NCBI RefSeq assembly: GCF_044324785.1
Contig: NZ_CP172129.1
Length of the DNA stretch: 64,000 bases
Source of the DNA: Escherichia coli
Lineage (GTDB): Bacteria; Pseudomonadota; Gammaproteobacteria; Enterobacterales; Enterobacteriaceae
Direction: 5' to 3' (one strand)
Shown here: piece after piece, positions 18,996 to 41,798 of the stretch
How positions within the stretch are numbered: position 1 is the stretch's first letter
Layout: every line of letters begins with the position of its first letter
Translations under genes and position numbers: made by a program
Notes under the pieces: model-generated
What the model saw: the letters and a program-made list of their open reading frames with translations, nothing else
Database searches by the model: none
What the model was told of the DNA's origin: nothing

Positions 18996-19024
18996 TGCTT
19001 ACGTATGTGGATACATATACAGTA
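18996..19024. promoter_or_regulatory. LexA (SOS) box-like sequence upstream of cia (minus strand TACTGTATATGTATCCACATACGTAAGCAG)
   Basis: CTGTATAT half-site and AT-rich core 43-70 bp upstream of the cia start codon; colicin genes are classically SOS-regulated. Confidence 0.5.
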
Positions 19025-19138
19025 TTAATTTATTAAGGAGAAAATGGCATGTCAAGATTTAATGATAGTGATTATCATTAACATGAAGTGATTTTACGTC
19101 TGGATAACGTAAATGATTGCGGTATACAGGCCAGGCGG

Positions 19139-19987
19139 TCAGATTTTCAGCCGTGCCTGTTCCTGCAGCAGTTCCAGATGATATGCAGCAATAGCGTTTA
19201 CCACCCCTGCCGTCATCCGTGCGTCGGCGATCGCTGAGTGTGCCTGCCCTTCCCAGGTCAGTCCGGCCTGGCTGGCAGCACAGGCCAGTGAAATCGTGCC
19301 ATAGCGGTTGGTGGCCCCATAATATCCTGCAGCCAGCTCCATCGCACAATATACCGTCAGTTCTTCCAGCCAGTCAGCCGGATCGCTATGTGCGGCAGCA
19401 GTCTGTTTCAGAATGCGGATGTCGAACCGGGCATTAAAGATAATTACTGGTCGGTCCCCGATTGCATGACGCAGTTGCCGCGCCACATCTGTCCATGATG
19501 GTGCGCCGCAGAGAGCCTGCTCGCTGATACCATGCACAGCGGCGGCCTGCGCCCCGATGGCGACCGTGGGCTTCAGCCTGGTTTCAAATACCACCTGACC
19601 GGACGCATCGGTCAGGCCGATTTCCAGAGCTTCCGCGGTATTGTCCAGTCCTGTCGTTTCAGTATCCAGAAAGAGCGGTGCCAGACTCAGCCAGTCATAT
19701 GCCTGCCGTGCCATCCGGCCACTGGTGCTGTTAAGTCTGGATAAAACGGAAAGTCGCTGGCCAGCCAGAAGTTGTTTACTCGTCAGTGGGCGTTTCTCAC
19801 GCATCGGAACACAGTCTGCAATTCGGTATACAGCGAACCTGCCACCATAAGTGTTTTTATACCACTTAACCGGCTCAGCACCGGGGGCTGGCTTCATTCT
19901 GAATTCATCGCGCAGCCGTTCTTTCGAGAAACACCTGTCTTCGGCAATCGCCTGCGCACGTCTGGTGGCCAGCTCATCATTATTCAT
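19139..19987 (-). CDS. DnaQ-like DEDDh 3'-5' exonuclease domain protein (282 aa)
   Basis: Exo I motif LFLDTETTGLD, then an HxAxxD-type motif (HSAIADA) near the C-terminus. Confidence 0.7.
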   Translation of the reverse strand: MNNDELATRRAQAIAEDRCFSKERLRDEFRMKPAPGAEPVKWYKNTYGGRFAVYRIADCVPMREKRPLTSKQLLAGQRLSVLSRLNSTSGRMARQAYDWLSLAPLFLDTETTGLDNTAEALEIGLTDASGQVVFETRLKPTVAIGAQAAAVHGISEQALCGAPSWTDVARQLRHAIGDRPVIIFNARFDIRILKQTAAAHSDPADWLEELTVYCAMELAAGYYGATNRYGTISLACAASQAGLTWEGQAHSAIADARMTAGVVNAIAAYHLELLQEQARLKI

Positions 19988-20032
19988 GGTTCTTGCATCT
20001 CCGTCAGACCTTTTTATATCCGGACAGCCCCT

Positions 20033-20314
20033 CTATGGCCACTTCTGTGCAGTATGCAATACACGCAGGATATACACTTTTCCCCACTGGCTGTCGACCT
20101 CATAAACCAGAACAAAATGCGGGTGAATAACCAGTTCCCGGGTACCTTCCACACGACCGTTGCGGCCTTTATACGGCTGCCCGGCCAGGCTGCTGGCTGA
20201 ATAACCAATCCGTTCGTCCAGTTCAATGGCGGCCATCAGGTTCTGCTCCGCAATGTACTCACGAATGCGCTTCCTGTCCTGGCTGGCCAGCATGGTCCAG
20301 AATATCTCCATCAT
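20033..20314 (-). CDS. ParE/RelE-family type II toxin (93 aa)
   Basis: Small basic protein overlapping the stop of the upstream RHH antitoxin gene; typical toxin-antitoxin layout. Confidence 0.75.
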   Translation of the reverse strand: MMEIFWTMLASQDRKRIREYIAEQNLMAAIELDERIGYSASSLAGQPYKGRNGRVEGTRELVIHPHFVLVYEVDSQWGKVYILRVLHTAQKWP

Positions 20315-20580
20315 TTACCGGCGACTTTCCTGCTCATTTCATCCCGCCATGCAGCAGCGGAAGATTCGACCATGTCATGGGGAAGCACATCGCCGCGCTC
20401 GAGTTGCTGACGTCCTGCCTCAACCTGGTCACGGAACCAGGTATTATGCTGCCGTTCCACGGTCTGGCGCATAAAATCCCGGATTAACTGAGAGCCATTA
20501 CGGTCCATGCTTTTTGCAGCGGCCATAAAAGCATCCTTCAGTTCAGCGTCAATTCTTAAACTCATATTAACCTGTGCCAT
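20311..20580 (-). CDS. Ribbon-helix-helix (ParD/CopG-like) antitoxin (89 aa)
   Basis: N-terminal RHH-like segment SLRIDAELKDAF; 4-bp overlap with the toxin gene. Confidence 0.75.
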   Translation of the reverse strand: MAQVNMSLRIDAELKDAFMAAAKSMDRNGSQLIRDFMRQTVERQHNTWFRDQVEAGRQQLERGDVLPHDMVESSAAAWRDEMSRKVAGK

Positions 20581-20602
20581 TTATCACCTCGTCATTACTA
20601 CG

Positions 20603-20619
20603 TATATACACAGTATATA
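20603..20619. promoter_or_regulatory. Inverted repeat tatatac-aca-gtatata upstream of the antitoxin gene (likely autoregulatory operator)
   Basis: Palindrome about 23 bp upstream of the antitoxin start. Confidence 0.45.
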
Positions 20620-21190
20620 ACGATTCAGATATCGTCACCAGAATATGCCGCGTCAGCGGCATGGAAGGCGGCACTCTGTTGTTGCATATGACACAGGAGT
20701 AAAACCGCCGAAGCCCGGCGTAAGCCGGTACGGACTGATAGATTTCACCTTACCCATCCCCAGCCCTGCTAGGCCATATCCGCTTTCAGCCATGATAAAG
20801 CTTCTGTGCGCGGTCGGAGTGGTCCCGACGAGGGTTTACCCGAAGTCGGGGCGTATCTCCGCGTTAGCGGGCCGTCAGGGCCGCTTACGAGCGTGTACTC
20901 AATACTTTCAGCGAGAAGACTGACAGCCATGATGGAGTATAGTTACAACATTCATAATTAAAAGCGACTCTGTTCCGGCCCGAAGGGCCGGGGCGGGGCC
21001 GCTTTTCAGTTATGAGGGAGGGGCTTTGTGGTTTCAGTTCTGCGCTGGTTCGGGGTTTTTCTGGAGGTTGGTTTTGTGTGTTGTAACTAAAGTGGCTCCG
21101 GTTGGGGCCCGCCGTTTACGGTGGGAGGTGCATATCTGTCTGTCCACAGGACAGGCAGTGAATAGGTTTTCTTTTTAAATGAATGTAATT

Positions 21191-21228
21191 GGGGAGCCCG
21201 CAGAATTCGGAAAAAATCGTACGCTAAG
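21191..21228. repeat. 38-bp terminal inverted repeat of a Tn21-subgroup (Tn3-family) transposon (tnpA end)
   Basis: ggggagcccgcagaattcggaaaaaatcgtacgctaag immediately downstream of the tnpA stop. Confidence 0.75.
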
Positions 21229-24190
21229 GTTTTCCGGGCATCCGTAAGGGCCGAAACTTCCCGTCTTCCAGTCTGCGGCTCTGCCGCCAGACGTAATCGC
21301 CGGTTAGGTTGATGTGCTCCCAGCCCAGCGGCGACAGGAATTGCAGCAGCTCGCCGTCCACCGGCTTGCCGGCCTCGACCAACCCCTGGGTGGCGCGTTC
21401 CAGGTACACCGTGTTCCACAGCACGATAGCCGCCGTCACCAGGTTGAGGCCGCTGGCCCGGTAGCGCTGCTGCTCGAAGCTCCGATCCCTGATTTCCCCA
21501 AGGCGGTTGAAGAACACCGCCCTGGCCAGCGAGTTGCGCGCCTCACCTTTGTTCAGGCCGGCATGCACGCGGCGGCGCAGTTCAACACTTTGCAGCCAGT
21601 CCAGGATGAACAGCGTGCGCTCGATCCGGCCCAGCTCGCGCAGGGCCACGGCCAGTCCGTTCTGGCGCGGGTAGCTGCCGAGCTTGCGCAGCATCAGCGA
21701 GGCGGTGACGGTGCCCTGCTTGATCGAGCTGGCCAGGCGCAGGATGTCGTCCCAGTGGGCACGCACGTGCTTGATGTTCAGGGTGCCGCCGATCAGCGGG
21801 CGCAACGTCGGGTAGGCTTGCACGCCCTGCGGCACGTACAGCTTGGTTTCGCCGAGGTCGCGGATGCGCGGCGCGAAGCGGAAGCCTAGCAGGTGCATCA
21901 GGGCAAAGACGTGATCGGTGAAGCCGGCCGTGTCGGTGTAGTGCTCCTCGATCCGCAGGTCGGACTCGTGGTACAGCAGGCCGTCGAGCACATAGGTGGA
22001 ATCGCGGACGCCGACATTCACCACGCGGGTGCTGAACGGCGCGTACTGGTCGGAGATATGGGTATAGAACAGCCGTCCCGGCTCGCTACCGTACTTCGGG
22101 TTGACGTGCCCGGTGCTCTCGCCCCGGCCACCCGCGCGGAAGCGCTGGCCATCGGAGGATGAGGTCGTGCCGTCGCCCCAGTGGGCGGCAAAGGCGTGGC
22201 GATACTGGTGGTTGACCAGCTCGGCCAAGGCCGCCGAATAGGTTTCGTCGCGGATGTGCCAGGCTTGCAGCCAGGACAGCTTGGCGTAGGTCAGGCCGGG
22301 GCTCGACTCGGCCATCTTGGTCAGCCCGAGGTTGATCGCATCACCGAGGATTGCGGACAGCAGCAACGTCCTGTCTTTGGCCTCGGCCCCGTCCTTCAAG
22401 TGGGTGAAGTGGCGGCTGAAGCCCGTCCAGTCGTCCACGTCCATCAGCAGTTCGGTGATCTTGATGCGCGGCAGTAACTGGCTGGTTTGGTCGATCAGCG
22501 CCTGCGCCCGATCCGGCACCGCCGCATCCAGCGGGGTGATTTTCAGCCCTGACTCGGTGAGGATGGCATCGGGCAGCTCGTTGTCCTTGGCCAGGCGGGT
22601 GACGGTGGCCAACTGCTCGTCCAGCAGCTGCAAACGCTCTTCCAGGTACTGGTCGCTGTTCGGGTTGATCGCCAGGGGCAGGGCCTGCTCGCGCTTGAGT
22701 GCGGCGAACTTCTCGGCCGGCAGCAGGTAGTCGTCGAAGTCGCGGAACTGCCGCGAGCCCTTGACCCAGATGTCGCCGGAGCGCAGGGCGTTCTTCAGCT
22801 CGGACAGGGCGCAGATTTCGTAGAATTTCCGGTCGAGGCCTTCCGGGGTGATCACCAGCGGCTTCCAGCGCGGCTTGATGAAGGCCGTGGGTGCATCGGC
22901 CGGCACCTTGCGCAGGTTGTCGGCGTTCATCTCACGCAGGGTCTGCACGGCTGCCAGCACGCCTTGCGCGGCCGGCGCGGCGCGCAGTTCCAGCACCTCC
23001 AGCAAGGCCGGCGTGTAACGGCGCAGGGTGGCGAAGTTCTCGCCGACCAGGTGCAGGTGGTCGAAGCCTTCCGGCCGGGCCAGCAGCTCGGCCTCGCTGA
23101 CGCTCTCGGTGAACTCGTCCCAGGGAATCACCGCCTCGATGGCGGCATAGGGGTCGCTGCCGCTTTCCTTCGCTTCCAGCAGCGCCTGGCCGATCCTGGA
23201 GTACAGGCGCACCTTGTCGTTGATCGCCTTGCCCTGCTTCTGGAACTGCTGCTGATGCTTGTGCTTCGCGCCGCTGAACAGCTTGACCAGGATGCGGTCA
23301 TGCAGATCGACCAGCTCATCGATCACGGTCGCGGTGCTCTCCAGCACCACGGCGGCCAGGGTCGCGTAGCGGCGCTGCGGCTCGAACTTACCGAGGTCTT
23401 TGGGCGTCATCTGCCCACCCTCGCGGGCCAGCTTGAGCAGGCGGTTCTGGTGGATGTGCCGGCCCAGGCCTTCGGGCAAGTCCACCAACTGAAATGTCTT
23501 CAGCCGCTCGATGTGTTCCAGCATGTGCCGAGAGTTGGGTTTCAGCGGTGCCTGGCGCAGCCAGGTCAACCAGGTGATGCTGCTGCCGGCCTTGAGCTTC
23601 AACAGCTCGTCCAGCTTGGCCCGATGCGAGTCCGTGAGTGGTTCGACCAGGGCGCGGTAGACCCGCCGATTGGCTCGCGCAATGGCTTCCGAGCAGGCCC
23701 GGTCAATCACGCTCAGCGCCGGCAGGATGCGTCGTTTCTGCCGTAGGCTCTCCAGGGCCTGACCGGCCAGCAGCAAGCCTTTGTCGGTCTGCTGGGCCAG
23801 CTCGGTTAGCTCGCGCACCAGGGCGCGGAAGTCGGACAGGCCGAACGGGGCCAGTTGCAGGTAGGTGCGCAGTTCCTGGGCATGCTCGCGACGGGTCACG
23901 TCGCGCTCGCCGTACTTTGCCCAGCTCGCCGGCTCGGCCTGGACTTGCTTCGCCACCCACAGGATGACCGGCTCGGGCAGCTCGCTGTCGGTTCCCAGCG
24001 CGTAACCGGGGTAGCGCAGCAGGCAGAGCTGCACGGCGAAGCCGAGGCGGTTGGCGTCGCCGCGTCGCTGGCGGATCAGCGACAGGTCGGAGTCGTTGAA
24101 GGTGTAGTAGCGGATCAGGTCATCCTGGCTTTCCGGCAGCGCAAGCAGGGTGTCCCGCTCCGTGGCCGAGAGGATCAAGCGACGCGGCAT
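21224..24190 (-). CDS. tnpA: Tn3-family transposase TnpA (988 aa), Tn21/Tn1721 subgroup
   Basis: 988-aa product with a conserved DDE C-terminal region; followed by a serine-recombinase resolvase gene. Confidence 0.9.
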
Positions 24191-24193
24191 GTG

Positions 24194-24754
24194 TCAGTCG
24201 TCCGTGCGGAGGTACTGGTAGAGGGTTTCCCGGCTGATGTTGAACTCGCGGGCAAGCTGCGCCTTGGGCTCGCCGGCCGTCGCTCGCTGCCGCAGGGTAG
24301 CAGCCTGCTCATCGGACAGGGCTTTCTTGCGGCCCCGGTACGCGCCACGCTGCTTGGCCAAGGCGATGCCCTCACGCTGCCGCTCGCGGATCAGGGCGCG
24401 CTCGAACTCAGCGAAGGCCCCCATCACCGACAGCATCAGGTTGGCCATCGGCGAGTCCTCGCCAGTGAACACCAGGCCCTCCTTCAGGAACTCGATGCGC
24501 ACGCCGCGCTGAGTCAGCTTCTGTACCAAGCGACGCAGGTCATCGAGGTTGCGGGCCAGCCGATCCATGCTGTGCACCACCACTGTATCGCCTTCGCGGA
24601 CGAAGCTCAGCAGCGCTTCGAGCTGGGGGCGCTGGGTGTCCTTGCCCGATGCCTTGTCGGTGAACACCTTGCTCACCTGGGTTTGTTCCAGCTGGCGTTC
24701 CGGGTTCTGGTCAAAGCTGCTGACCCGGACGTAGCCGATGCGGTGCCCCTGCAC
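24194..24754 (-). CDS. tnpR: Serine-recombinase resolvase TnpR (186 aa)
   Basis: Catalytic serine motif GYVRVSSFDQN and C-terminal helix-turn-helix. Confidence 0.9.
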   Translation of the reverse strand: MQGHRIGYVRVSSFDQNPERQLEQTQVSKVFTDKASGKDTQRPQLEALLSFVREGDTVVVHSMDRLARNLDDLRRLVQKLTQRGVRIEFLKEGLVFTGEDSPMANLMLSVMGAFAEFERALIRERQREGIALAKQRGAYRGRKKALSDEQAATLRQRATAGEPKAQLAREFNISRETLYQYLRTDD

Positions 24755-24900
24755 GATGTCTCCTTGGTTGAAGGCGGCTTAAGTGCACTTTCTGTTCCGT
24801 TGTGCCTCAAAGCCCATTTCTGTCAGGCTGAAATCTATAACCTTCGCGGGCATGTGTCAAAAAATGGGAAAGCAGACTCTATTCTGACGAAGCGGCGCGG
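24755..24900. promoter_or_regulatory. Probable res site / tnpR promoter region
   Basis: Inferred from its position upstream of tnpR in a Tn21-like layout; subsites not mapped. Confidence 0.4.
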
Positions 24901-24929
24901 CCCTGCCTGACATCAAGTTAGGGTATGCC

Positions 24930-25280
24930 TCAACCTGACGGCGGCGAATCACAAGCGTCCGGTTTGACGCTGGTTTCGGTCGCAGTGCTGGCCCGCGCCT
25001 GGAAGCGCTGATAGCACTCCAGCCCGCAGAAATGCTCCACGTACTCGGCCCCTTCCGGCGTGAAGGCGGCATCGAGCGGGATTTCCTTGCAGCACACGCA
25101 GCAACTGGTGCTCGGTTCATTGGCGTTCATGGTGGTGTTCCTCCATTGGTTGACGAAGCCGACGAAGGCCGCCGCCGGCATCGGCCTGGCGAACAGGAAA
25201 CCCTGCACCGTGTCGCAACCCGCCTGCCGCAACCACGCAAGGCAGTCGGGTGTTTCCACACCCTCGGCTACCACCTCCAT
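24930..25280 (-). pseudogene. urf2/tnpM-like remnant (3' part of an EAL-domain gene cut by integron insertion)
   Basis: Translation ...[27 protein letters not shown]... is an EAL-domain C-terminus; abuts the integron IRi. Confidence 0.6.
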
Positions 25281-25305
25281 TGTCGTTTTCAGAAGACGGC
25301 TGCAC
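25281..25305. repeat. Class 1 integron inverted repeat IRi (tgtcgttttcagaagacggctgcac)
   Basis: Canonical 25-bp IRi sequence read directly. Confidence 0.8.
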
Positions 25306-25482
25306 TGAACGTCAGAAGCCGACTGCACTATAGCAGCGGAGGGGTTGGATCCATCAGGCAACGACGGGCTGCTGCCGGCCATCAGCGGACGCAGGGAGGA
25401 CTTTCCGCAACCGGCCGTTCGATGCGGCACCGATGGCCTTCGCGCAGGGGTAGTGAATCCGCCAGGATTGACTTGCGCTGCC

Positions 25483-26496
25483 CTACCTCTCACTAGTGAG
25501 GGGCGGCAGCGCATCAAGCGGTGAGCGCACTCCGGCACCGCCAACTTTCAGCACATGCGTGTAAATCATCGTCGTAGAGACGTCGGAATGGCCGAGCAGA
25601 TCCTGCACGGTTCGAATGTCGTAACCGCTGCGGAGCAAGGCCGTCGCGAACGAGTGGCGGAGGGTGTGCGGTGTGGCGGGCTTCGTGATGCCTGCTTGTT
25701 CTACGGCACGTTTGAAGGCGCGCTGAAAGGTCTGGTCATACATGTGATGGCGACGCACGACACCGCTCCGTGGATCGGTCGAATGCGTGTGCTGCGCAAA
25801 AACCCAGAACCACGGCCAGGAATGCCCGGCGCGCGGATACTTCCGCTCAAGGGCGTCGGGAAGCGCAACGCCGCTGCGGCCCTCGGCCTGGTCCTTCAGC
25901 CACCATGCCCGTGCACGCGACAGCTGCTCGCGCAGGCTGGGTGCCAAGCTCTCGGGTAACATCAAGGCCCGATCCTTGGAGCCCTTGCCCTCCCGCACGA
26001 TGATCGTGCCGTGATCGAAATCCAGATCCTTGACCCGCAGTTGCAAACCCTCACTGATCCGCATGCCCGTTCCATACAGAAGCTGGGCGAACAAACGATG
26101 CTCGCCTTCCAGAAAACCGAGGATGCGAACCACTTCATCCGGGGTCAGCACCACCGGCAAGCGCCGCGACGGCCGAGGTCTTCCGATCTCCTGAAGCCAG
26201 GGCAGATCCGTGCACAGCACCTTGCCGTAGAAGAACAGCAAGGCCGCCAATGCCTGACGATGCGTGGAGACCGAAACCTTGCGCTCGTTCGCCAGCCAGG
26301 ACAGAAATGCCTCGACTTCGCTGCTGCCCAAGGTTGCCGGGTGACGCACACCGTGGAAACGGATGAAGGCACGAACCCAGTGGACATAAGCCTGTTCGGT
26401 TCGTAAGCTGTAATGCAAGTAGCGTATGCGCTCACGCAACTGGTCCAGAACCTTGACCGAACGCAGCGGTGGTAACGGCGCAGTGGCGGTTTTCAT
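25483..26496 (-). CDS. intI1: Class 1 integron integrase IntI1 (337 aa)
   Basis: Tyrosine recombinase; full-length match to IntI1 as recalled (ends ...[24 protein letters not shown]). Confidence 0.95.
26381..26409 (+). promoter_or_regulatory. Integron cassette promoter Pc, weak variant (-35 TGGACA, 17-bp spacer, -10 TAAGCT)
   Basis: Hexamers read directly inside the 5' end of intI1 on the opposite strand. Confidence 0.7.
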
Positions 26497-26572
26497 GGCT
26501 TGTTATGACTGTTTTTTTGTACAGTCTATGCCTCGGGCATCCAAGCAGCAAGCGCGTTACGCCGTGGGTCGA

Positions 26573-26637
26573 TGTTTGATGTTATGGAGCAGCAACGATG
26601 TTACGCAGCAGGGCAGTCGCCCTAAAACAAAGTTAAC
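26573..26637. other. attI1 recombination site (approximate)
   Basis: ...cctaaaacaaag|ttaacc junction immediately before the first cassette. Confidence 0.55.
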
Positions 26638-26651
26638 CCGGAACCAAAATT

Positions 26652-27125
26652 GTGAAAGTATCATTAATGGCTGCAAAAGCGAAAAACGGAGTGATTGGTT
26701 GCGGTCCACACATACCCTGGTCCGCGAAAGGAGAGCAGCTACTCTTTAAAGCCTTGACGTACAACCAGTGGCTTTTGGTGGGCCGCAAGACGTTCGAATC
26801 TATGGGAGCACTCCCTAATAGGAAATACGCGGTCGTTACTCGCTCAGCCTGGACGGCCGATAATGACAACGTAATAGTATTCCCGTCGATCGAAGAGGCC
26901 ATGTACGGGCTGGCTGAACTCACCGATCACGTTATAGTGTCTGGTGGCGGGGAGATTTACAGAGAAACATTGCCCATGGCCTCTACGCTCCATATATCGA
27001 CGATTGATATTGAGCCGGAAGGAGATGTTTTCTTTCCGAATATTCCCAATACCTTCGAAGTTGTTTTTGAGCAACACTTTAGCTCAAACATTAACTATTG
27101 CTATCAAATTTGGCAAAAGGGTTAA
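26652..27125 (+). CDS. dfrA: Trimethoprim-resistant dihydrofolate reductase, dfrA5/dfrA14-group cassette (157 aa)
   Basis: [52 protein letters not shown]...; cannot tell dfrA5 from dfrA14 from memory. Confidence 0.85.
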
Positions 27126-27206
27126 CAAAGCTATGCAATTGACGGTAAAAAGCTTCGTTCGCTTCGCTTGCTACGCTTCTTACCGCAATTGATAACGGCG
27201 TTAGAT
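27126..27206. other. attC (59-be) of the dfrA cassette, ending in core GTTAGAT
   Basis: Imperfect inverted repeats and terminal gttagat read directly. Confidence 0.55.
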
Positions 27207-27224
27207 GCACTAAGCACATAATTG

Positions 27225-28383
<1,159 letters not shown>

Positions 28384-28495
28384 TACGCCTATTTTTATAG
28401 GTTAATGTCATGATAATAATGGTTTCTTAGACGTCAGGTGGCACTTTTCGGGGAAATGTGCGCGGAACCCCTATTTGTTTATTTTTCTAAATACA

Positions 28496-28524
28496 TTCAA
28501 ATATGTATCCGCTCATGAGACAAT
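28496..28524 (+). promoter_or_regulatory. blaTEM P3-type promoter (-35 TTCAAA, 17-bp spacer, -10 GACAAT)
   Basis: Hexamers read directly about 40 bp upstream of the blaTEM start. Confidence 0.65.
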
Positions 28525-28553
28525 AACCCTGGTAAATGCTTCAATAATATTGA

Positions 28554-29426
<873 letters not shown>

Positions 29427-29535
29427 CTGTCAGACCAAGTTTACTCATATATACTTTAGATTGATTTAAAACTTCATTTTTAATTTAAAAGGATCTAGGT
29501 GAAGATCCTTTTTGATAATCTCATGACCAAAATCC

Positions 29536-29573
29536 CTTAACGTGAGTTTTCGTTCCACTGAGCGTCAGACCCC
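29536..29573. repeat. Tn2/Tn3 38-bp terminal inverted repeat (bla-proximal end)
   Basis: cttaacgtgagttttcgttccactgagcgtcagacccc. Confidence 0.9.
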
Positions 29574-29575
29574 TT

Positions 29576-29960
29576 ATGGCAGAGCAGGGAAAGGAATTGC
29601 CGGGCTATGTGCAACGGGAATTTGAAGAATTTCTCCAATGCGGGCGGCTGGAGCATGGCTTTCTACGGGTTCGCTGCGAGTCTTGCCACGCCGAGCACCT
29701 GGTCGCTTTCAGCTGTAAGCGTCGCGGTTTCTGCCCGAGCTGTGGGGCGCGGCGGATGGCCGAAAGTGCCGCCTTGCTGGTTGATGAAGTACTGCCTGAA
29801 CAACCCATGCGTCAGTGGGTGTTGAGCTTCCCGTTTCAGCTGCGTTTCCTGTTTGGGGTCGTTTGCGGGAAGGGGCGGAATCCTACGCTAAGGCTTTGGC
29901 CAGCGATATTCTCCGGTGAGATTGATGTGTTCCCAGGGGATAGGAGAAGTCGCTTGATAT
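29576..29960 (+). pseudogene. N-terminal fragment of an IS91-family (rolling-circle) transposase, cut by IS26
   Basis: Zinc-binding CxxC...CxxC segment (RCESCHAEH...FCPSCGARR); the frame runs into IS26. Confidence 0.5.
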
Positions 29961-30780
29961 GGCACTGTTGCAAATAGTCGGTGGTGATAAACTTATCATC
30001 CCCTTTTGCTGATGGAGCTGCACATGAACCCATTCAAAGGCCGGCATTTTCAGCGTGACATCATTCTGTGGGCCGTACGCTGGTACTGCAAATACGGCAT
30101 CAGTTACCGTGAGCTGCAGGAGATGCTGGCTGAACGCGGAGTGAATGTCGATCACTCCACGATTTACCGCTGGGTTCAGCGTTATGCGCCTGAAATGGAA
30201 AAACGGCTGCGCTGGTACTGGCGTAACCCTTCCGATCTTTGCCCGTGGCACATGGATGAAACCTACGTGAAGGTCAATGGCCGCTGGGCGTATCTGTACC
30301 GGGCCGTCGACAGCCGGGGCCGCACTGTCGATTTTTATCTCTCCTCCCGTCGTAACAGCAAAGCTGCATACCGGTTTCTGGGTAAAATCCTCAACAACGT
30401 GAAGAAGTGGCAGATCCCGCGATTCATCAACACGGATAAAGCGCCCGCCTATGGTCGCGCGCTTGCTCTGCTCAAACGCGAAGGCCGGTGCCCGTCTGAC
30501 GTTGAACACCGACAGATTAAGTACCGGAACAACGTGATTGAATGCGATCATGGCAAACTGAAACGGATAATCGGCGCCACGCTGGGATTTAAATCCATGA
30601 AGACGGCTTACGCCACCATCAAAGGTATTGAGGTGATGCGTGCACTACGCAAAGGCCAGGCCTCAGCATTTTATTATGGTGATCCCCTGGGCGAAATGCG
30701 CCTGGTAAGCAGAGTTTTTGAAATGTAAGGCCTTTGAATAAGACAAAAGGCTGCCTCATCGCTAACTTTGCAACAGTGCC
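29961..30780 (+). mobile_element. IS26 copy 2 (820 bp), no target-site duplication
   Basis: Same terminal repeats; flanks cttgatat and ctcttgtc differ. Confidence 0.95.
30024..30728 (+). CDS. tnpA: IS26 transposase Tnp26
   Basis: Identical protein to the other two copies. Confidence 0.95.
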   Translation: MNPFKGRHFQRDIILWAVRWYCKYGISYRELQEMLAERGVNVDHSTIYRWVQRYAPEMEKRLRWYWRNPSDLCPWHMDETYVKVNGRWAYLYRAVDSRGRTVDFYLSSRRNSKAAYRFLGKILNNVKKWQIPRFINTDKAPAYGRALALLKREGRCPSDVEHRQIKYRNNVIECDHGKLKRIIGATLGFKSMKTAYATIKGIEVMRALRKGQASAFYYGDPLGEMRLVSRVFEM

Positions 30781-31238
30781 CTCTTGTCCTCGTCCGGTAA
30801 GAAGTCGGGATTGACGGCATTGCGGGACACCACATCAACGGCGCGTCCGAACATTCGCGACAGCCTGCGCTCAAACGGACATTGATCAACCGATAGGCTG
30901 TGAACAGCGCCAAGTTGCTGCCCCATTGACGGCCACGCTTTGAGCAAATCCGCTCCAGACAGATCAGCCGCCGGTACTCCCGGAATTGCCGTTATCACCA
31001 AGCATGCACCCTCCTGTTCCTCCTGCCAGTTGATGACCTCGGGGCAAGCCACACCTCGACCTTTGAGCCAAATGAGGCGGTCACGCTCTCCAGCGAGCTC
31101 ACCGCGGCGGGAAGCAGGTGCGATTTTCGCGAAGGCATGCCCGTCACCACGTCGAAAAACAAAATCACCAGATTCTCCGCCTCTGACAGGCAACCAGTCA
31201 GAATGCGATTCACCAAAAAAAATATTAGTTCGATTCAA
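30781..31238 (-). pseudogene. strA: strA (aph(3'')-Ib) 5' fragment, about 152 codons, 3' end removed by IS26
   Basis: MNRTNIFFGESHSDWLPVRGGESGDFVFRRGDGHAFAKIA...; the frame continues into IS26. Confidence 0.9.
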
Positions 31239-31298
31239 TGGAGGTTCCTTCAGTTTTCTGATGAAGCGCGAATATAGAGAAATATCCCGAATGTGCAG

Positions 31299-32114
31299 TT
31301 AACGAATTCTTGCGGTTTCTTTTAGCGCCGCCAATACCGCCAGCCCGTCGCGCAAGGGGCGCGGCTCGTGTGTGCGGATGAAGTCAGCTCCACCTGCGGC
31401 GGCGGCAAGCTCTGCAGCGAGTGTCGCGGCCCCGACATCCCCCGGACCACGGCCTGTGAGCGCGCGCAGAAAGGATTTGCGCGAAACAGACAGAAGCACC
31501 GGCAAATCGAAGCGCAGCCGCAATTCATCGAACCGCGCCAGCACCGAGAGCGAGGTTTCGGGAGCAGCCCCCAGAAAAAACCCCATGCCGGGATCAAGGA
31601 CAAGGCGGTTGCGTTTGATACCGGCACCCGTCAGCGCCGCGATGCGCGCGTCAAAGAACGCCGCAATGTGATCCATGATGTCGCCAGCGGGTGCCTCGCG
31701 CCGATCTGCCTGCCCGTCTTGCACCGAATGCATAACGACGAGTTTGGCAGATGATTTCGCCAATTGCGGATAGAACGCAGCGTCTGGAAAACCGCGAATA
31801 TCATTGAGATAGGCCACACCACGCGACAAGGCATAGGCTTGCGTCGCGGGTTGATAACTGTCGAGCGAGACGGGAATGCCATCTGCCTTGAGCGCGTCCA
31901 GCACCGGCGCGATACGCTCGATTTCTGTGTCGGACGAAACAGGCGCGGCGTCGGGGTTGCTGGATGCCGGACCGAGGTCGATCACATCTGCCCCCTCGGC
32001 CATCAGCTTACGCGCCTGCGCAATGGCTGCGTCTGGCGCCAGATACCGGCCTCCATCGGAGAAACTGTCCGAGGTTATGTTGACGATGCCGAAAATGATG
32101 AGCGATTTATTCAT
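31299..32114 (-). CDS. sul2: Sulfonamide-resistant dihydropteroate synthase Sul2 (271 aa)
   Basis: MNKSLIIFGIVNITSDSFSDGGRYL... full length. Confidence 0.95.
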   Translation of the reverse strand: MNKSLIIFGIVNITSDSFSDGGRYLAPDAAIAQARKLMAEGADVIDLGPASSNPDAAPVSSDTEIERIAPVLDALKADGIPVSLDSYQPATQAYALSRGVAYLNDIRGFPDAAFYPQLAKSSAKLVVMHSVQDGQADRREAPAGDIMDHIAAFFDARIAALTGAGIKRNRLVLDPGMGFFLGAAPETSLSVLARFDELRLRFDLPVLLSVSRKSFLRALTGRGPGDVGAATLAAELAAAAGGADFIRTHEPRPLRDGLAVLAALKETARIR

Positions 32115-32421
32115 GGGGGCTTCTATAATAATAATAATCGAGCATGAGTCTCATACGGATGCTCGGGTCGAAAGGGAATCCCCAGGCGAGTAACCTGTTT
32201 GCGGTGATCCATTAGCTGCAGGAGCAGAATAGCATACATCTGGAAGCAAAGCCAGGAAAGCGGCCTATGGAGCTGTGCGGCAGCGCTCAGTAGGCAATTT
32301 TTCAAAATATTGTTAAGCCTTTTCTGAGCATGGTATTTTTCATGGTATTACCAATTAGCAGGAAAATAAGTCATTGAATATAAAAGATAAAAATGTCTTG
32401 TTTACAATAGAGTGGGGGGGG

Positions 32422-33273
32422 TCAGCCTGCCGCCTTGGGCCGGGTGATGTCGTACTTGCCCGCCGCGAACTCGGTTACCGTCCAGCCCAGCGCGACCAGC
32501 TCCGGCAACGCCTCGCGCACCCGCTGGCGGCGCTTGCGCATGGTCGAACCACTGGCCTCTGACGGCCAGACATAGCCGCACAAGGTATCTATGGAAGCCT
32601 TGCCGGTTTTGCCGGGGTCGATCCAGCCACACAGCCGCTGGTGCAGCAGGCGGGCGGTTTCGCTGTCCAGCGCCCGCACCTCGTCCATGCTGATGCGCAC
32701 ATGCTGGCCGCCACCCATGACGGCCTGCGCGATCAAGGGGTTCAGGGCCACGTACAGGCGCCCGTCCGCCTCGTCGCTGGCGTACTCCGACAGCAGCCGA
32801 AACCCCTGCCGCTTGCGGCCATTCTGGGCGATGATGGATACCTTCCAAAGGCGCTCGATGCAGTCCTGTATGTGCTTGAGCGCCCCACCACTATCGACCT
32901 CTGCCCCGATTTCCTTTGCCAGCGCCCGATAGCTACCTTTGACCACCATGGCATCAGCGGTGACGGCCTCCCACTTGGGTTCCAGGAACAGCCGGAGCTG
33001 CCGTCCGCCTTCGGTCTTGGGTTCCGGGCCAAGCACTAGGCCATTAGGCCCAGCCATGGCCACCAGCCCTTGCAGGATGCGCAGATCATCAGCGCCCAGC
33101 GGCTCCGGGCCGCTGAACTCGATCCGCTTGCCGTCGCCGTAGTCATACGTCACGTCCAGCTTGCTGCGCTTGCGCTCGCCCCGCTTGAGGGCACGGAACA
33201 GGCCGGGGGCCAGACAGTGCGCCGGGTCGTGCCGGACGTGGCTGAGGCTGTGCTTGTTCTTAGGCTTCACCAC
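32422..33273 (-). CDS. repC: RSF1010-type (IncQ) replication initiator RepC (probable GTG start)
   Basis: VVKPKNKHSLSHVRHDPAHCLAPGLFRAL... matches RepC as recalled; the ORF track extends further upstream artificially. Confidence 0.8.
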   Translation of the reverse strand: MVKPKNKHSLSHVRHDPAHCLAPGLFRALKRGERKRSKLDVTYDYGDGKRIEFSGPEPLGADDLRILQGLVAMAGPNGLVLGPEPKTEGGRQLRLFLEPKWEAVTADAMVVKGSYRALAKEIGAEVDSGGALKHIQDCIERLWKVSIIAQNGRKRQGFRLLSEYASDEADGRLYVALNPLIAQAVMGGGQHVRISMDEVRALDSETARLLHQRLCGWIDPGKTGKASIDTLCGYVWPSEASGSTMRKRRQRVREALPELVALGWTVTEFAAGKYDITRPKAAG

Positions 33274-33976
33274 GGGGCACCCCCTTGCTCTTGCGCTGCC
33301 TCTCCAGCACGGCGGGCTTGAGCACCCCGCCGTCATGCCGCCTGAACCACCGATCAGCGAACGGTGCGCCATAGTTGGCCTTGCTCACACCGAAGCGGAC
33401 GAAGAACCGGCGCTGGTCGTCGTCCACACCCCATTCCTCGGCCTCGGCGCTGGTCATGCTCGACAGGTAGGACTGCCAGCGGATGTTATCGACCAGTACC
33501 GAGCTGCCCCGGCTGGCCTGCTGCTGGTCGCCTGCGCCCATCATGGCCGCGCCCTTGCTGGCATGGTGCAGGAACACGATAGAGCACCCGGTATCGGCGG
33601 CGATGGCCTCCATGCGACCGATGACCTGGGCCATGGGGCCGCTGGCGTTTTCTTCCTCGATGTGGAACCGGCGCAGCGTGTCCAGCACCATCAGGCGGCG
33701 GCCCTCGGCGGCGCGCTTGAGGCCGTCGAACCACTCCGGGGCCATGATGTTGGGCAGGCTGCCGATCAGCGGCTGGATCAGCAGGCCGTCAGCCACGGCT
33801 TGCCGTTCCTCGGCGCTGAGGTGCGCCCCAAGGGCGTGCAGGCGGTGATGAATGGCGGTGGGCGGGTCTTCGGCGGGCAGGTAGATCACCGGGCCGGTGG
33901 GCAGTTCGCCCACCTCCAGCAGATCCGGCCCGCCTGCAATCTGTGCGGCCAGTTGCAGGGCCAGCATGGATTTACC
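33260..33976 (-). pseudogene. repA: RSF1010-type helicase gene repA, 3' part (5' end removed by IS26)
   Basis: Begins mid-protein at ...MLALQLAAQIAGGPDLL...; Walker-type motifs present. Confidence 0.8.
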
Positions 33977-34796
33977 GGCACTGTTGCAAAGTTAGCGATG
34001 AGGCAGCCTTTTGTCTTATTCAAAGGCCTTACATTTCAAAAACTCTGCTTACCAGGCGCATTTCGCCCAGGGGATCACCATAATAAAATGCTGAGGCCTG
34101 GCCTTTGCGTAGTGCACGCATCACCTCAATACCTTTGATGGTGGCGTAAGCCGTCTTCATGGATTTAAATCCCAGCGTGGCGCCGATTATCCGTTTCAGT
34201 TTGCCATGATCGCATTCAATCACGTTGTTCCGGTACTTAATCTGTCGGTGTTCAACGTCAGACGGGCACCGGCCTTCGCGTTTGAGCAGAGCAAGCGCGC
34301 GACCATAGGCGGGCGCTTTATCCGTGTTGATGAATCGCGGGATCTGCCACTTCTTCACGTTGTTGAGGATTTTACCCAGAAACCGGTATGCAGCTTTGCT
34401 GTTACGACGGGAGGAGAGATAAAAATCGACAGTGCGGCCCCGGCTGTCGACGGCCCGGTACAGATACGCCCAGCGGCCATTGACCTTCACGTAGGTTTCA
34501 TCCATGTGCCACGGGCAAAGATCGGAAGGGTTACGCCAGTACCAGCGCAGCCGTTTTTCCATTTCAGGCGCATAACGCTGAACCCAGCGGTAAATCGTGG
34601 AGTGATCGACATTCACTCCGCGTTCAGCCAGCATCTCCTGCAGCTCACGGTAACTGATGCCGTATTTGCAGTACCAGCGTACGGCCCACAGAATGATGTC
34701 ACGCTGAAAATGCCGGCCTTTGAATGGGTTCATGTGCAGCTCCATCAGCAAAAGGGGATGATAAGTTTATCACCACCGACTATTTGCAACAGTGCC
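33977..34796 (-). mobile_element. IS26 copy 3 (820 bp), no target-site duplication
   Basis: Same terminal repeats; flanks gatttacc and gttttcga differ. Confidence 0.95.
34029..34733 (-). CDS. tnpA: IS26 transposase Tnp26
   Basis: Identical protein to the other two copies. Confidence 0.95.
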   Translation of the reverse strand: MNPFKGRHFQRDIILWAVRWYCKYGISYRELQEMLAERGVNVDHSTIYRWVQRYAPEMEKRLRWYWRNPSDLCPWHMDETYVKVNGRWAYLYRAVDSRGRTVDFYLSSRRNSKAAYRFLGKILNNVKKWQIPRFINTDKAPAYGRALALLKREGRCPSDVEHRQIKYRNNVIECDHGKLKRIIGATLGFKSMKTAYATIKGIEVMRALRKGQASAFYYGDPLGEMRLVSRVFEM

Positions 34797-35893
34797 GTTT
34801 TCGACGCCAGTGGCACCAACAATGCGCACAGCCCATAGCCAAGTGTGTGACTGGCCGCAAGCCAGCCCGCGCCTGCGCCGTCGGCCAGCTTATCATTCAG
34901 TAAAAGTTGATAAGCGGGTGTTGCCAGAGCGGCCCCAAATGACAGCACTGCACAGCCCAGGTAAAACAACCATAGCTGTTCAGTGAGCATGATAGCCAGA
35001 CCACTACTCATCAACACCCCGGCACTCAGGAGCAGAGCCACTGGAGTCAGGCGCTGTGGACGGAGTACCACGAACTGCGCGATAAGCGCAGCTATTGCGG
35101 ACAGCCCCAACAACCACGCCACCTGTTGGCTAATAGTGGTGGTATCAGTATCGAACTGGCGAGTAAGGGCTGGCGAAAGTCCAAGCTGCATCATGCTCAT
35201 TGCCGCAGCCAGTAACATTGCGCAAAGCAGATAAGGCAGGCAATCCCGCTTCAGGCTGACGCTCTTGCGCTCCGGTGTGGGCTGTGGTGGTGTGCCGGGC
35301 AACCGCAGAAGCATCACCACAGCCCACACCGGAGCTGCCATCAGCATCCACACTGGCGCCAGAGGGTGAATGACCAACATTGCCGCCGCGCACAGCGGCC
35401 CGAATAGCCTGCCGCAGCTCAGGCCGGAGCTGATGGTTGCCAGAGCGGCCATGCGATTCCCTTCTCCCGCTCTCTGCAATGCCCAGACCTGACAGGCTGG
35501 CACCATTGCTGACACGGTCAGACCGTAGACGATCCGGGCGATGATTAATATTCCCAACCCCACCGCTGTTGTTACGGCACCGGTAGCCATCAGCACGCTT
35601 CCCAGCCCAAGCAGGGTAAAGCTTACGCCATATCCTCCCAGAGCCCACAGCACCACAGTCTTACTGCCAGTAAGGGAAATTTGCTTTCCCCACCATGGGG
35701 AAGATGGCAGAAACAGCATTGAGCCCAGCATCAGCAGGGCAGCCCATACAGACAGACTCAGATTTGTCTGTATGACCAGAACAGGGAGTACAACCAGCAG
35801 ACCGTTCTGTCCGATACCGAGAAGACCGGCACTGAACGCCAGTGGCCAGCAGGACAGGGTTTTTTGGGGCGTATCTTCGATCTTAGATGACAT
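34797..35893 (-). CDS. MFS transporter (ShiF-like, upstream of aerobactin operon); 3' end abuts or is cut by IS26
   Basis: Multiple hydrophobic helices; the ORF's last codons are IS26 sequence. Confidence 0.6.
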
Positions 35894-35967
35894 TGTAATG
35901 TTTCAACACCATGTATTAATTGTGTTTATTTGTAAAATTAATTTTTCTGACAATAACATTTCTCATT

Positions 35968-35986
35968 GATAATGAGAATCATTATT
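35968..35986. promoter_or_regulatory. Fur box in the iucA promoter (gataatgagaatcattatt)
   Basis: Near-consensus Fur box about 45 bp upstream of the iucA start. Confidence 0.75.
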
Positions 35987-36028
35987 GACATAATTGTTAT
36001 TATTTTACTGTGTAGGAGCTGTTTGATT

Positions 36029-37753
36029 ATGATCCTGCCCTCTGAAAAATCCGCCACAGATGTGGCTGCGCAGTGCTTCCTGAATGCCTTGATTCGTGAA
36101 ACCAAAGACTGGCAACTGGCGGAATACCCGCCAGACGAATTGATTATCCCGCTGGACGAACAGAAGTCGCTCCATTTCAGAGTGGCTTATTTCTCCCCAA
36201 CCCAGCATCACCGCTTTGCATTTCCTGCTCATCTGGTCACGGCATCAGGCAGTTATCCTGTCGACTTTACCACTCTCTCCCGGCTTATTATTGATAAGCT
36301 CCGGCATCAACTTTTTCTGCCAGTTCCCCTCTGCGAAACTTTCCACCAACGCGTGCTGGAAAGCTACGCCCATACGCAACAGACAATTGATGCCCGCCAT
36401 GACTGGGCCATCCTGCGTGAAAAAGCGTTGAATTTTGGCGAGGCTGAGCAGGCACTGCTGACAGGACACGCTTTCCACCCTGCACCTAAGTCTCATGAAC
36501 CGTTTAACCGCCAGGAAGCTGAACGATACCTGCCTGACATGGCACCTCACTTCCCGCTGCGGTGGTTTTCGGTGGATAAAACGCAAATCGCTGGTGAAAG
36601 TCTGCATCTTAACCTTCAACAGCGGTTGACGCGATTTGCCGCAGAAAATGCGCCCCAGTTACTCAACGAATTAAGTGACAATCAATGGCTGTTCCCGCTG
36701 CACCCGTGGCAGGGAGAATATCTTTTGCAGCAAGTGTGGTGCCAGGCACTTTTTGCTAAAGGACTTATCAGAGACTTAGGCGAGGCCGGCACGTCGTGGC
36801 TGCCGACCACCTCTTCCCGCTCCCTCTACTGTGCTACCAGCCGCGATATGATCAAGTTCTCCCTGAGCGTTCGGCTGACCAACTCCGTCCGTACTCTGTC
36901 TGTGAAAGAGGTGGAGCGAGGAATGCGCCTGGCACGTCTGGCGCAAACCGACGGCTGGCAGATGCTACAGGCCCGCTTCCCTACTTTCCGGGTAATGCAG
37001 GAGGACGGCTGGGCCGGGCTGCGCGATCTTAACGGCAACATCATGCAGGAAAGTTTGTTTTCCCTGCGTGAAAACCTGCTGCTGGAGCAGCCGCAAAGCC
37101 AGACCAACGTTCTGGTTTCCCTGACTCAGGCCGCACCGGATGGCGGTGATTCGCTGCTGGTTTCGGCGGTAAAACGCCTGAGCGATCGCCTCGGTATCAC
37201 TGTGCAACAGGCCGCCCACGCATGGGTCGATGCTTACTGTCAGCAGGTGCTGAAGCCTCTGTTTACGGCTGAAGCGGATTACGGCCTGGTGCTGCTGGCG
37301 CATCAGCAAAATATTCTTGTGCAGATGCTTGGGGATCTGCCGGTCGGATTTATTTACCGTGACTGCCAGGGCAGCGCGTTTATGCCTCACGCGACAGAGT
37401 GGCTCGATACCATTGACGAGGCGCAGGCGGAAAATATTTTCACCCGTGAGCAGTTGCTGCGCTATTTCCCTTATTACCTGCTGGTTAACTCCACTTTTGC
37501 CGTAACTGCTGCGCTGGGTGCTGCCGGGCTGGACAGCGAAGCGAATCTGATGGCTCGTGTACGAACATTGCTGGCTGAAGTGCGTGACCAGGTGACTCAT
37601 AAAACCTGTCTCAACTATGTTCTGGAAAGTCCGTACTGGAACGTAAAAGGTAACTTTTTCTGTTATCTGAACGATCATAACGAGAACACCATCGTTGACC
37701 CTTCGGTGATCTATTTTGATTTCGCTAACCCGCTGCAGGCTCAGGAGGTCTGA
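36029..37753 (+). CDS. iucA: Aerobactin synthetase IucA (start at MILPSEK; ORF track begins earlier at 35966)
   Basis: IucA/IucC-family siderophore synthetase, first gene of the operon. Confidence 0.9.
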   Translation: MILPSEKSATDVAAQCFLNALIRETKDWQLAEYPPDELIIPLDEQKSLHFRVAYFSPTQHHRFAFPAHLVTASGSYPVDFTTLSRLIIDKLRHQLFLPVPLCETFHQRVLESYAHTQQTIDARHDWAILREKALNFGEAEQALLTGHAFHPAPKSHEPFNRQEAERYLPDMAPHFPLRWFSVDKTQIAGESLHLNLQQRLTRFAAENAPQLLNELSDNQWLFPLHPWQGEYLLQQVWCQALFAKGLIRDLGEAGTSWLPTTSSRSLYCATSRDMIKFSLSVRLTNSVRTLSVKEVERGMRLARLAQTDGWQMLQARFPTFRVMQEDGWAGLRDLNGNIMQESLFSLRENLLLEQPQSQTNVLVSLTQAAPDGGDSLLVSAVKRLSDRLGITVQQAAHAWVDAYCQQVLKPLFTAEADYGLVLLAHQQNILVQMLGDLPVGFIYRDCQGSAFMPHATEWLDTIDEAQAENIFTREQLLRYFPYYLLVNSTFAVTAALGAAGLDSEANLMARVRTLLAEVRDQVTHKTCLNYVLESPYWNVKGNFFCYLNDHNENTIVDPSVIYFDFANPLQAQEV

Positions 37754-38701
37754 ATGTCTGGGGCAAACATTGTTCACAGCGGATATGGACTGCGCTGTGA
37801 AAAACTCGACAAGCCTCTGAATCTTGGCTGGGGGCTGGACAATAGCGCGGTGTTGCACTGGCCCGGGGAGCTGCCAACAGGGTGGCTGTGCGACGCGCTG
37901 GATCAGATATTTATCGCCGCACCACAACTTTCAGCAGTGGTTCTTCCCTGGTCCGAATGGTGTGAGGAGCCACAGGCGCTGACGCTTTTCGGACAGGTAC
38001 AAAGCGACATTATCCATCGTTCCGCTTTCTGGCAGTTACCGTTATGGCTGAGTTCTCCGGCAAACCGGGCCTCCGGTGAAATGGTTTTTGATGCAGAGCG
38101 TGAGATTTATTTCCCGCAGCGCCCCCCCCGTCCGCAGGGTGAAGTTTATCGTCGTTACGATCCACGCATTCGCAGGATGCTGAGTTTCCGCATTGCCGAT
38201 CCCGTTTCTGATGCAGAACGTTTCACTCGCTGGATGAACGATCCGCGCGTTGAGTATTTCTGGGAGCAAAGTGGCTCACTGGAGGTACAGATCGCCTATC
38301 TGGAACGCCAGCTCACCAGTAAACATGCATTCCCGCTGATTGGTTGTTTCGACGATCGGCCGTTCAGTTATTTCGAAATCTACTGGGCGGCGGAAGACCG
38401 CATTGGTCGCCACTATTCGTGGCAGCCCTTTGACCGTGGCCTGCATCTGCTGGTTGGTGAACAGCAATGGCGCGGAGCCCACTATGTGCAAAGCTGGCTG
38501 CGCGGGGTGACACATTACCTGCTGCTGAATGAGCCACGTACGCAGCGCACAGTACTGGAGCCACGCATCGATAACCAGCGCCTGTTCCGCCATCTTGAGC
38601 CTGCGGGATACCGGACAATTAAAGAGTTCGACTTCCCACATAAACGCTCGCGCATGGTGATGGCGGATCGTCATCACTTCTTCACGGAGGTCGGTCTGTA
38701 A
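37754..38701 (+). CDS. iucB: N6-hydroxylysine acetyltransferase IucB (315 aa)
   Basis: Size and position; acyltransferase. Confidence 0.9.
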   Translation: MSGANIVHSGYGLRCEKLDKPLNLGWGLDNSAVLHWPGELPTGWLCDALDQIFIAAPQLSAVVLPWSEWCEEPQALTLFGQVQSDIIHRSAFWQLPLWLSSPANRASGEMVFDAEREIYFPQRPPRPQGEVYRRYDPRIRRMLSFRIADPVSDAERFTRWMNDPRVEYFWEQSGSLEVQIAYLERQLTSKHAFPLIGCFDDRPFSYFEIYWAAEDRIGRHYSWQPFDRGLHLLVGEQQWRGAHYVQSWLRGVTHYLLLNEPRTQRTVLEPRIDNQRLFRHLEPAGYRTIKEFDFPHKRSRMVMADRHHFFTEVGL

Positions 38702-41717: not shown

Positions 41718-41798
41718 GGAAAACGCAGCCGGAGGCTGCTTCTTTAACTCGCTACACAGCATCTTTGGGCTGATTTTTTCCGCCCGTATGGAGGAATA

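Follow-up and report, generated by a model that had tools for sequence, protein, structure and literature searches.

A previously described dfrA5-IS26 class 1 integron with a weak Pc promoter and a 24-bp 3'-CS remnant on an Escherichia coli F-type plasmid

The stretch of 64,000 nucleotides of Escherichia coli DNA analysed here (contig NZ_CP172129.1 of NCBI RefSeq assembly GCF_044324785.1; "the window") carries an integron that we identify as an ordinary, previously described member of the dfrA5-IS26 group of atypical class 1 integrons. It consists of the 5'-conserved segment (5'-CS), a single dfrA5 cassette, 24 bp of the 3'-conserved segment (3'-CS) and the insertion sequence IS26, and it has almost certainly been inherited by descent rather than formed anew. 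From the inverted repeat at the integrase end (IRi) through IS26 (25281-28044, 2,764 bp) it is 100% identical to pO26-CRL (NC_013728), pO26-CRL125 and pO111-CRL115, and the same 2,764 bp recur at 100% identity in many F-type plasmids, including those of the ColV type, so that this is not a chance resemblance. The agreement with pO26-CRL extends over 24907-28100 (99.97%, gapless, with one mismatch at 24916), reaching the Tn21 flank on the left and, on the right, 56 bp past IS26 into the truncated tnpR (delta-tnpR) of Tn2; it is the sharing of both flanks that argues for descent. No sequence in the window contradicts the dfrA5-IS26 identification. The original prediction had placed a class 1 integron at 25281-27224, which the IRi at 25281 and the intact intI1 of 337 amino acids (aa) bear out, and the alignment with reference class 1 integrons that it proposed as a check returned the match to pO26-CRL together with collinearity with NZ_CP069845 up to 27224.

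The structure has been published in every respect that this prediction raised. In 31 E. coli strains of bovine and human origin, Dawes 2010 (PMC2939871) found the 5'-CS typical, the dfrA5 cassette complete and IS26 located "after the first 24 bp of the 3'-CS"; in the window IS26 stands at this same place, directly downstream of the attC site of dfrA5. Venturini 2013 (PMC3817090) sequenced pO26-CRL125 and pO111-CRL115, both with dfrA5, 24 bp of the 3'-CS and IS26, and Reid 2022 (PMC8813906) screened for a "dfrA5-IS26 deletion signature", termed globally disseminated, which was present on ColV contigs in nearly 1/3 of the ColV-positive sequence type 58 (ST58). The closest systems are the dfrA5-IS26 integrons of E. 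coli D22 (EU914098), pO26-CRL (GQ259888 / NC_013728), pO26-CRL125 and pO111-CRL115 (Dawes 2010; Venturini 2010, 2013). The window has in common with the pO26-CRL group the Tn21 tnpM flank and the Tn2 delta-tnpR-blaTEM-1 fragment after IS26, but its RSF1010 fragment lies in the opposite orientation to that of pO26-CRL and lacks strB and the 3' part of strA, and Tn4352 (aphA1), the tni/IRt remnant and the mer module of that group are absent from the window. A second set of relatives comprises IncF plasmids of the ColV/ColIa type with intI1-dfrA5-IS26, namely pDB4277 (KP398867), EcPF20 p1 (CP071442) and the ST58 ColV plasmids of Reid 2022. With pDB4277 and EcPF20 p1 the window shares colicin Ia, yacAB, a 3'-5' exonuclease, Tn1721-type tnpA/tnpR, the integron and the IS26-blaTEM-1-IS26 segment, and its identity to plasmids of this type is 99.99-100% over 19000-30782 and 30781-34796, whereas its third IS26 abuts a major facilitator superfamily (MFS) gene upstream of iucA and not aphA1 or sitABCD.

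Occurrences of the 3'-CS/IS26 junction were counted with a 60-bp query centred on it (E <= 1e-15, excluding IS26-only matches). The exact junction is present in 42 PLSDB plasmids, 39 of them from E. coli. Among 5,426 complete E. coli genomes 34 contain it, and 33 of these 34 places are on plasmids. Queries of 300 bp (70 plasmids, 75 genomes) were rejected as inflated by two-piece matches in which IS26 cuts inside qacE. The alternative to descent is that the junction arose here independently, position 24 of the 3'-CS being a preferred target of IS26, and it could draw on the occurrence of the identical breakpoint, with IS26 in the identical orientation, behind unrelated arrays at other sites in a Serratia IncA plasmid and a Klebsiella michiganensis plasmid. 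Yet IS26 has no marked target specificity (PMC2939871), 40 of the 42 PLSDB junctions carry dfrA5, and the gapless identity to pO26-CRL spans both flanks, which an independent insertion would not reproduce; we consider such an origin very unlikely and retain inheritance of the whole element.

Following the GTTAGAT core of attC (27200-27206), the window reads 18 bp (GCACTAAGCACATAATTG, 27207-27224) and then, from 27225, the terminal repeat of IS26 (GGCACTGTTGCAAA). The distance of 18 bp from the core to IS26 had been read correctly, and it is the "24 bp of the 3'-CS" of the literature, which is counted from TTAGAT at 27201. Over 26366-27224 the window shows 100% identity to the dfrA5-qacEdelta1-sul1-orf5 integron of NZ_CP069845, a plasmid of K. 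pneumoniae FDAARGOS_1305; that integron continues into qacEdelta1-sul1-orf5, whereas the window switches to IS26 at 27225. The predicted absence of the qacEdelta1/sul1 segment holds: in tblastn searches of the 64-kb window QacEdelta1 of NZ_CP069845 has no match and Sul1 finds only sul2 (53.5% identity), in agreement with separate qacEdelta1 and sul1 probes, which had no match in the window either. IRt, the repeat that would pair with IRi, was not found anywhere in the window with up to 6 substitutions allowed. The element thus has the class 1 platform, i.e. a full intI1, an attI1 with a cassette joined at GTT and a Pc promoter facing the cassettes, and it lacks the qacEdelta1/sul1 3'-CS and the IRi + IRt pair of the clinical (Tn402-derived, sul1-type) class 1 integrons. 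The loss of qacEdelta1-sul1-orf5 and of the tni/IRt end is due to IS26 and an associated deletion. With that end lost the integron cannot transpose by itself, and its mobility now depends on IS26 and the plasmid. NZ_CP069845.1 itself represents a different IS26 truncation of a dfrA5 integron: in the region 3700-3733 (corresponding to window 26366) its 5'-CS is cut by an IS26 only 15 bp upstream of the Pc -35, so that most of intI1 is lost and Pc-attI1-dfrA5-qacEdelta1-sul1 is kept; the unit flanked by IS26 occurs there in tandem copies.

The same 24-bp 3'-CS/IS26 scar, in the same orientation, stands behind arrays other than dfrA5 in 2 of the 42 PLSDB junction plasmids (27201-27238 in the window, 3506-3543 in both NZ_OW849492.1 and NZ_OM938014.1; sequence TTAGATGCACTAAGCACATAATTGGGCACTGTTGCAAA). 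One array is aadB-aadA2, on the Serratia IncA plasmid, with the TGN-10 variant of the weak Pc promoter (PcW-TGN-10, TGGTAAGCT); the other is aacA4cr-arr-3-dfrA27, on the K. michiganensis plasmid, with PcW. Both plasmids have IRi at a different site and another right-hand flank at IS26. An exact-match scan for the 38-nt scar across JGI metagenome contigs and GTDB species-representative genomes gave no hit. Tentatively, and with considerable doubt, we raise the prospect that the scar does not strictly mark a single clonal lineage of dfrA5 integrons. Possibly it moves as a unit, a single IntI1-catalysed attC x attC exchange joining an array to the "TTAGAT...-IS26" segment; it is also possible that this 3'-CS position is a recurrent target of IS26. 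If the scar does travel by attC x attC exchange, it would be natural evidence that truncated integrons stay recombinationally active.

Up to 26635 the 5'-CS does not differ from that of three independent reference integrons (100% identity). IntI1 scores 799.5 bits against the profile NF011946 (cut-off 435), which covers residues 1-337 of 337, and is identical to WP_000845048.1, the IntI1 of pO26-CRL; it has R at aa 32 and H at aa 39. The Pc hexamers had been read correctly in the original prediction and, with their spacer, agree with the definition of PcW as TGGACA/17/TAAGCT (Jové et al. 2010, Table 1, PMC2791841). The -10 is preceded by TCG, the TGN of an extended -10 being absent. The check for a second promoter created by a GGG insertion downstream of Pc was negative: an active P2 requires a 17-bp spacer (PMC2791841), and the 14-bp spacer found here means that there is no GGG insertion and that P2 is inactive. 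All features of the PcW configuration of Jové 2010 (hexamers, spacer, no TGN, no active P2, R32_H39) are accordingly present. Of the 321 integrons in that survey (PMC2791841), 16.5% had PcW with neither TGN nor P2; IntI1 R32_H39 accompanied PcW/PcH1 there and had the highest excision activity found (Table 3). A GGG insertion that creates P2 would also disrupt the LexA box (PMC2791841; PMC8876359); because it is absent, the LexA-type palindrome is uninterrupted. Through this putative box intI1 would be under SOS (LexA) control, and with the integrase intact, R32/H39 in place and the box kept, cassette exchange under SOS induction should remain possible. For this copy both integrase activity and cassette exchange are predictions from the sequence.

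The array holds one cassette of 568 bp, as predicted, and the assignment to the dfrA5 group can be tightened to dfrA5. The DNA of the cassette is 100% identical to the dfrA5 cassettes of reference records. The main alternative would be another allele of the dfrA5/dfrA14 group, which would change the phenotype or the epidemiological label. The profile NF000330 does work at the family level only, and dfrA14, the nearest other allele in the plasmid collection, aligns with the cassette at 88.7%; but the protein is identical over 157/157 aa to WP_001317507.1, annotated as DfrA5, and records that match the window at 100% DNA identity receive a dfrA5 call at 100% from AMRFinderPlus. These identities exclude another allele, for which we see virtually no chance, and dfrA14 as such was ruled out by its 88.7% DNA identity. 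Neither of the findings that were to speak against the prediction, a match to a different dfr allele or misread Pc hexamers, has occurred. The attC site has the R''/L''/L'/R' arrangement, and its bottom strand folds as a bulged hairpin in which an internal loop separates a 5-bp R-box stem from a long L-box stem, the latter with two bulged bases; the folding energy is unremarkable (z = -1.3), and it is the architecture alone that supports the attC assignment.

The promoterless dfrA5 cassette would be transcribed from PcW inside intI1; with P2 in its inactive 14-bp form, no other sigma-70-like cassette promoter is present. Translation from the GTG start of dfrA5, which is preceded 8 nt upstream by a weak sequence, GGAA, resembling the Shine-Dalgarno (SD) motif, is probably aided by ORF-11, the short open reading frame (ORF) of attI1. 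ORF-11 has an SD sequence of its own, GGAG at 26586-26589, 8 bp before its ATG at 26598, and its stop codon TAA (26634-26636), contributed by the cassette core, lies 15 nt before the GTG. This ORF was reported to boost the translation of first-position cassettes with poor initiation regions (review: PMC8876359), and since dfrA5 has only GGAA 8 nt before its GTG, translational coupling appears plausible here. The dihydrofolate reductase produced is predicted to be trimethoprim-insensitive, so that weak transcription in the first position would suffice for clinical trimethoprim resistance; such is the expression that we infer for dfrA5 in this copy.

The strength of Pc would be irrelevant if dfrA5 were effectively silent or were driven by a promoter derived from IS26 or internal to the cassette. 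PcW alone is the weakest common configuration, ~25-fold below the strong variant PcS (PMC2791841), and the GTG start with its weak GGAA would fit a silent gene. From its place downstream of the cassette, on the other hand, IS26 could provide only outward promoters that read antisense to dfrA5, and a consensus scan of 26200-27400 revealed no further sigma-70-like site on either strand. Silence is contradicted by the plasmids of the pO26-CRL family: they confer trimethoprim resistance, carry the identical modified integron and have dfrA5 as the sole trimethoprim determinant named in their resistance region (Venturini 2013, PMC3817090). Identity of the integron was checked here at 100% for pO26-CRL111 and is the same in pO26-CRL125 and pO111-CRL115 according to the authors. 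We regard a silent or otherwise driven dfrA5 as extremely unlikely and keep to transcription from PcW; by analogy with these plasmids (PMC3817090), a weak Pc would not mean a weak phenotype. A candidate hybrid promoter reading outward from the IS26 end next to the cassette (TTGCAA-17-CTTAGT) was rejected, having a poor -10 and being antisense to dfrA5.

Two observations weigh against the picture given so far. The promoter scan is crude: its thresholds miss even PcW itself, which leaves room for a non-canonical extra promoter. The transposon genes to the left of the integron are of the Tn1721 type and not of the Tn21 type of the original dfrA5-IS26 descriptions; tnpA/tnpR share about 77-79% identity with the Tn21 genes of pO26-CRL, and the sequence switches to Tn21 at ~24907, within the res region. 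The Tn21 side of the signature of Dawes 2010 is therefore incomplete, Tn21 being confined to the tnpM side from 24907, although the linkage was variable in that study as well (20 of 31 strains; PMC2939871). From the Tn1721-type tnpA/tnpR it follows that at least one res-site or homologous exchange has occurred since the origin of the element. The same Tn1721/Tn21 hybrid backbone is found in pDB4277 and EcPF20 p1.

The element links trimethoprim resistance to blaTEM-1 and sul2 on an F-type plasmid with virulence functions (aerobactin, colicin Ia). Having lost the 3'-CS primer site, it escapes standard cassette PCR (polymerase chain reaction) between the 5'-CS and the 3'-CS. Its junction is used as an epidemiological marker for tracking across human, livestock and environmental E. 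coli. All of these points have been published; the importance of the element is practical and there is no conceptual novelty. What is added here is the exact anatomy of this copy, the caveat that the scar by itself is also found behind arrays that lack dfrA5, and two small corrections, which concern the fragment that carries sul2 and the hybrid nature of the Tn1721/Tn21 backbone. The coordinates of all features are collected in the table.

Table. Features of the dfrA5-IS26 integron and of the adjoining sequence, in window positions
Feature	Position	Strand	Evidence or remark
IRi, 25-bp inverted repeat, integrase end and start of 5'-CS	25281..25305	+	exact match to TGTCGTTTTCAGAAGACGGCTGCAC
intI1, full-length class 1 integron integrase, 337 aa, R32/H39	25483..26496	-	profile match and protein identity
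Pc, weak variant PcW: TGGACA / 17-bp spacer / TAAGCT	26381..26409	+	pattern match, inside intI1
P2 hexamers TTGTTA/TACAGT, 14-bp spacer, inactive form	26500..26525	+	pattern match
LexA-box-like palindrome CTGT-N8-ACAG, uninterrupted, intI1 promoter region	26509..26524	.	pattern match; putative
attI1 recombination site	26568..26638	+	crossover G|TT at 26632|26633 within GTTAACC; left limit approximate, extent assumed from established knowledge of attI1
ORF-11, short attI1 ORF	26598..26636	+	translation read: MLRSRAVALKQS, then stop
dfrA5 gene cassette, 568 bp, sole cassette of array	26633..27200	+	G|TT crossovers in GTTAACC (26632) and GTTAGAT (27200)
dfrA5 ORF, 157 aa, GTG start, trimethoprim-insensitive dihydrofolate reductase	26652..27125	+	NF000330 302.5 bits, cut-off 250
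attC (59-base element) of dfrA5, 87 bp	27120..27206	+	R'' GGTTAAC to R' GTTAGAT; overlaps stop codon of dfrA5
3'-CS remnant, 24 bp	27201..27224	+	collinear with full 3'-CS of NZ_CP069845 to 27224
IS26, first copy, 820 bp, 14-bp terminal repeats	27225..28044	-	truncates 3'-CS; NF033587 275.5 bits, IS6-family transposase
First IS26-bounded fragment: delta-tnpR (Tn2), blaTEM-1, ISCR2 fragment, short further remnant	28045..29960	+	
IS26, second copy	29961..30780	+	inverted relative to first; 0 mismatches to copy 1 in reverse complement
Second IS26-bounded fragment, RSF1010-derived: delta-strA, sul2, repC, delta-repA	30781..33976	-	
IS26, third copy	33977..34796	-	direct orientation with first; abuts truncated MFS gene upstream of iucA
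Transposon backbone left of integron, Tn1721/Tn21 hybrid	21191..25280	-	
Tn1721 38-bp inverted repeat	21191-21228		exact
Tn1721-type tnpA	21224-24190		Tn3-family transposase, 1289 bits
Tn1721-type tnpR	24194-24754		
Tn21 tnpM/urf2 remnant	24930-25280		

Sulfonamide resistance had been attributed to sul2 in the IS26-bounded fragment adjacent to the integron. The gene is indeed there in place of sul1 and is intact: the Sul2 hidden Markov model (HMM) scores 615.7 bits (cut-off 575) over residues 1-271 of the product of 31299-32114 (minus strand), and its DNA is identical to that of a sul2 scored 100% by AMRFinder. Its location has to be corrected, as the fragment immediately adjacent to the first IS26 contains delta-tnpR(Tn2)-blaTEM-1 and sul2 resides in the second. 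Sulfonamide resistance would thus be supplied by the sul2 of a downstream IS26 array of the Tn6029 type. The blaTEM-1 gene (28566-29426) scores 668 bits with the blaTEM HMM, which like the IS6-family score exceeds the curated cut-off, and its product is the same protein as the TEM-1 annotated in EcPF20 p1. Between the Tn2 end and the middle IS26, within 29576-29960, lies a fragment of a transposase gene of ISCR clade Ia (ISCR2-like), and the short stretch that remains before the inverted IS26 is, from reading by eye, a putative end of Tn5393. The arrangement of the Tn2 end, ISCR2 and this putative Tn5393 end corresponds to the composite junction typical of Tn6029.

The three IS26 copies, each of 820 bp, are identical in sequence, the outer two being direct and the middle one inverted. 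None has an 8-bp target duplication, the flanking 8-mers being different in each case (CATAATTG and GCCGATAT at the first copy). This does not count against their identification as IS26, and it is consistent with a history of IS26-mediated deletion and recombination rather than simple insertion. The array follows the order common to Tn6029 and Tn6026 (IS26, delta-tnpR(Tn2)-blaTEM-1 with an ISCR2 fragment, IS26, RSF1010 repA/repC-sul2-strA, IS26), but it is without strB, its strA is cut at codon 152, and it is without the Tn4352 aphA1 arm that defines Tn6026. Judged by its gene content, it is a deletion derivative of the Tn6029/Tn6026 type and not a canonical transposon.

Compared with EcPF20 p1, 1,188 bp beside the middle IS26 have been deleted, with the loss of strB and of part of strA; 152 of the 267 strA codons are left (30781-31238), and the APH(3'')-Ib profile is matched over 1-154 of 267 only. 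Streptomycin resistance has presumably been lost through this deletion. Neither PLSDB nor the set of 5,426 complete E. coli genomes contains the 60-bp junction between IS26 and delta-strA (30780/30781), so that it appears to be an unreported deletion private to this plasmid. An apparent premature repC stop at 32422, due to a one-base difference from EcPF20 p1, was not treated as noteworthy; the EcPF20 p1 frame reads 16 residues past this codon, and the window stops there after ...KAAG, which we take to be the standard end of RSF1010 RepC.

At the left of the integron the backbone starts with an exact Tn1721 repeat; a right-hand Tn3-family inverted repeat was not found within the window, nor was, unlike in EcPF20 p1, a tet(A) module. 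At the other side, within 33977-35966, the MFS transporter gene upstream of iucA is truncated at its 3' end by the third IS26. In the related plasmid NZ_CP062858.1 the interval from IS26 to iucA is occupied by IS1-sitABCD-crcB-MFS; to judge from this order, the sit operon region would have been lost here or be located elsewhere. Further downstream follow the aerobactin genes iucA-D and iutA (35966-44000) and then sopA (45513-46688), which together indicate an F-type virulence plasmid.

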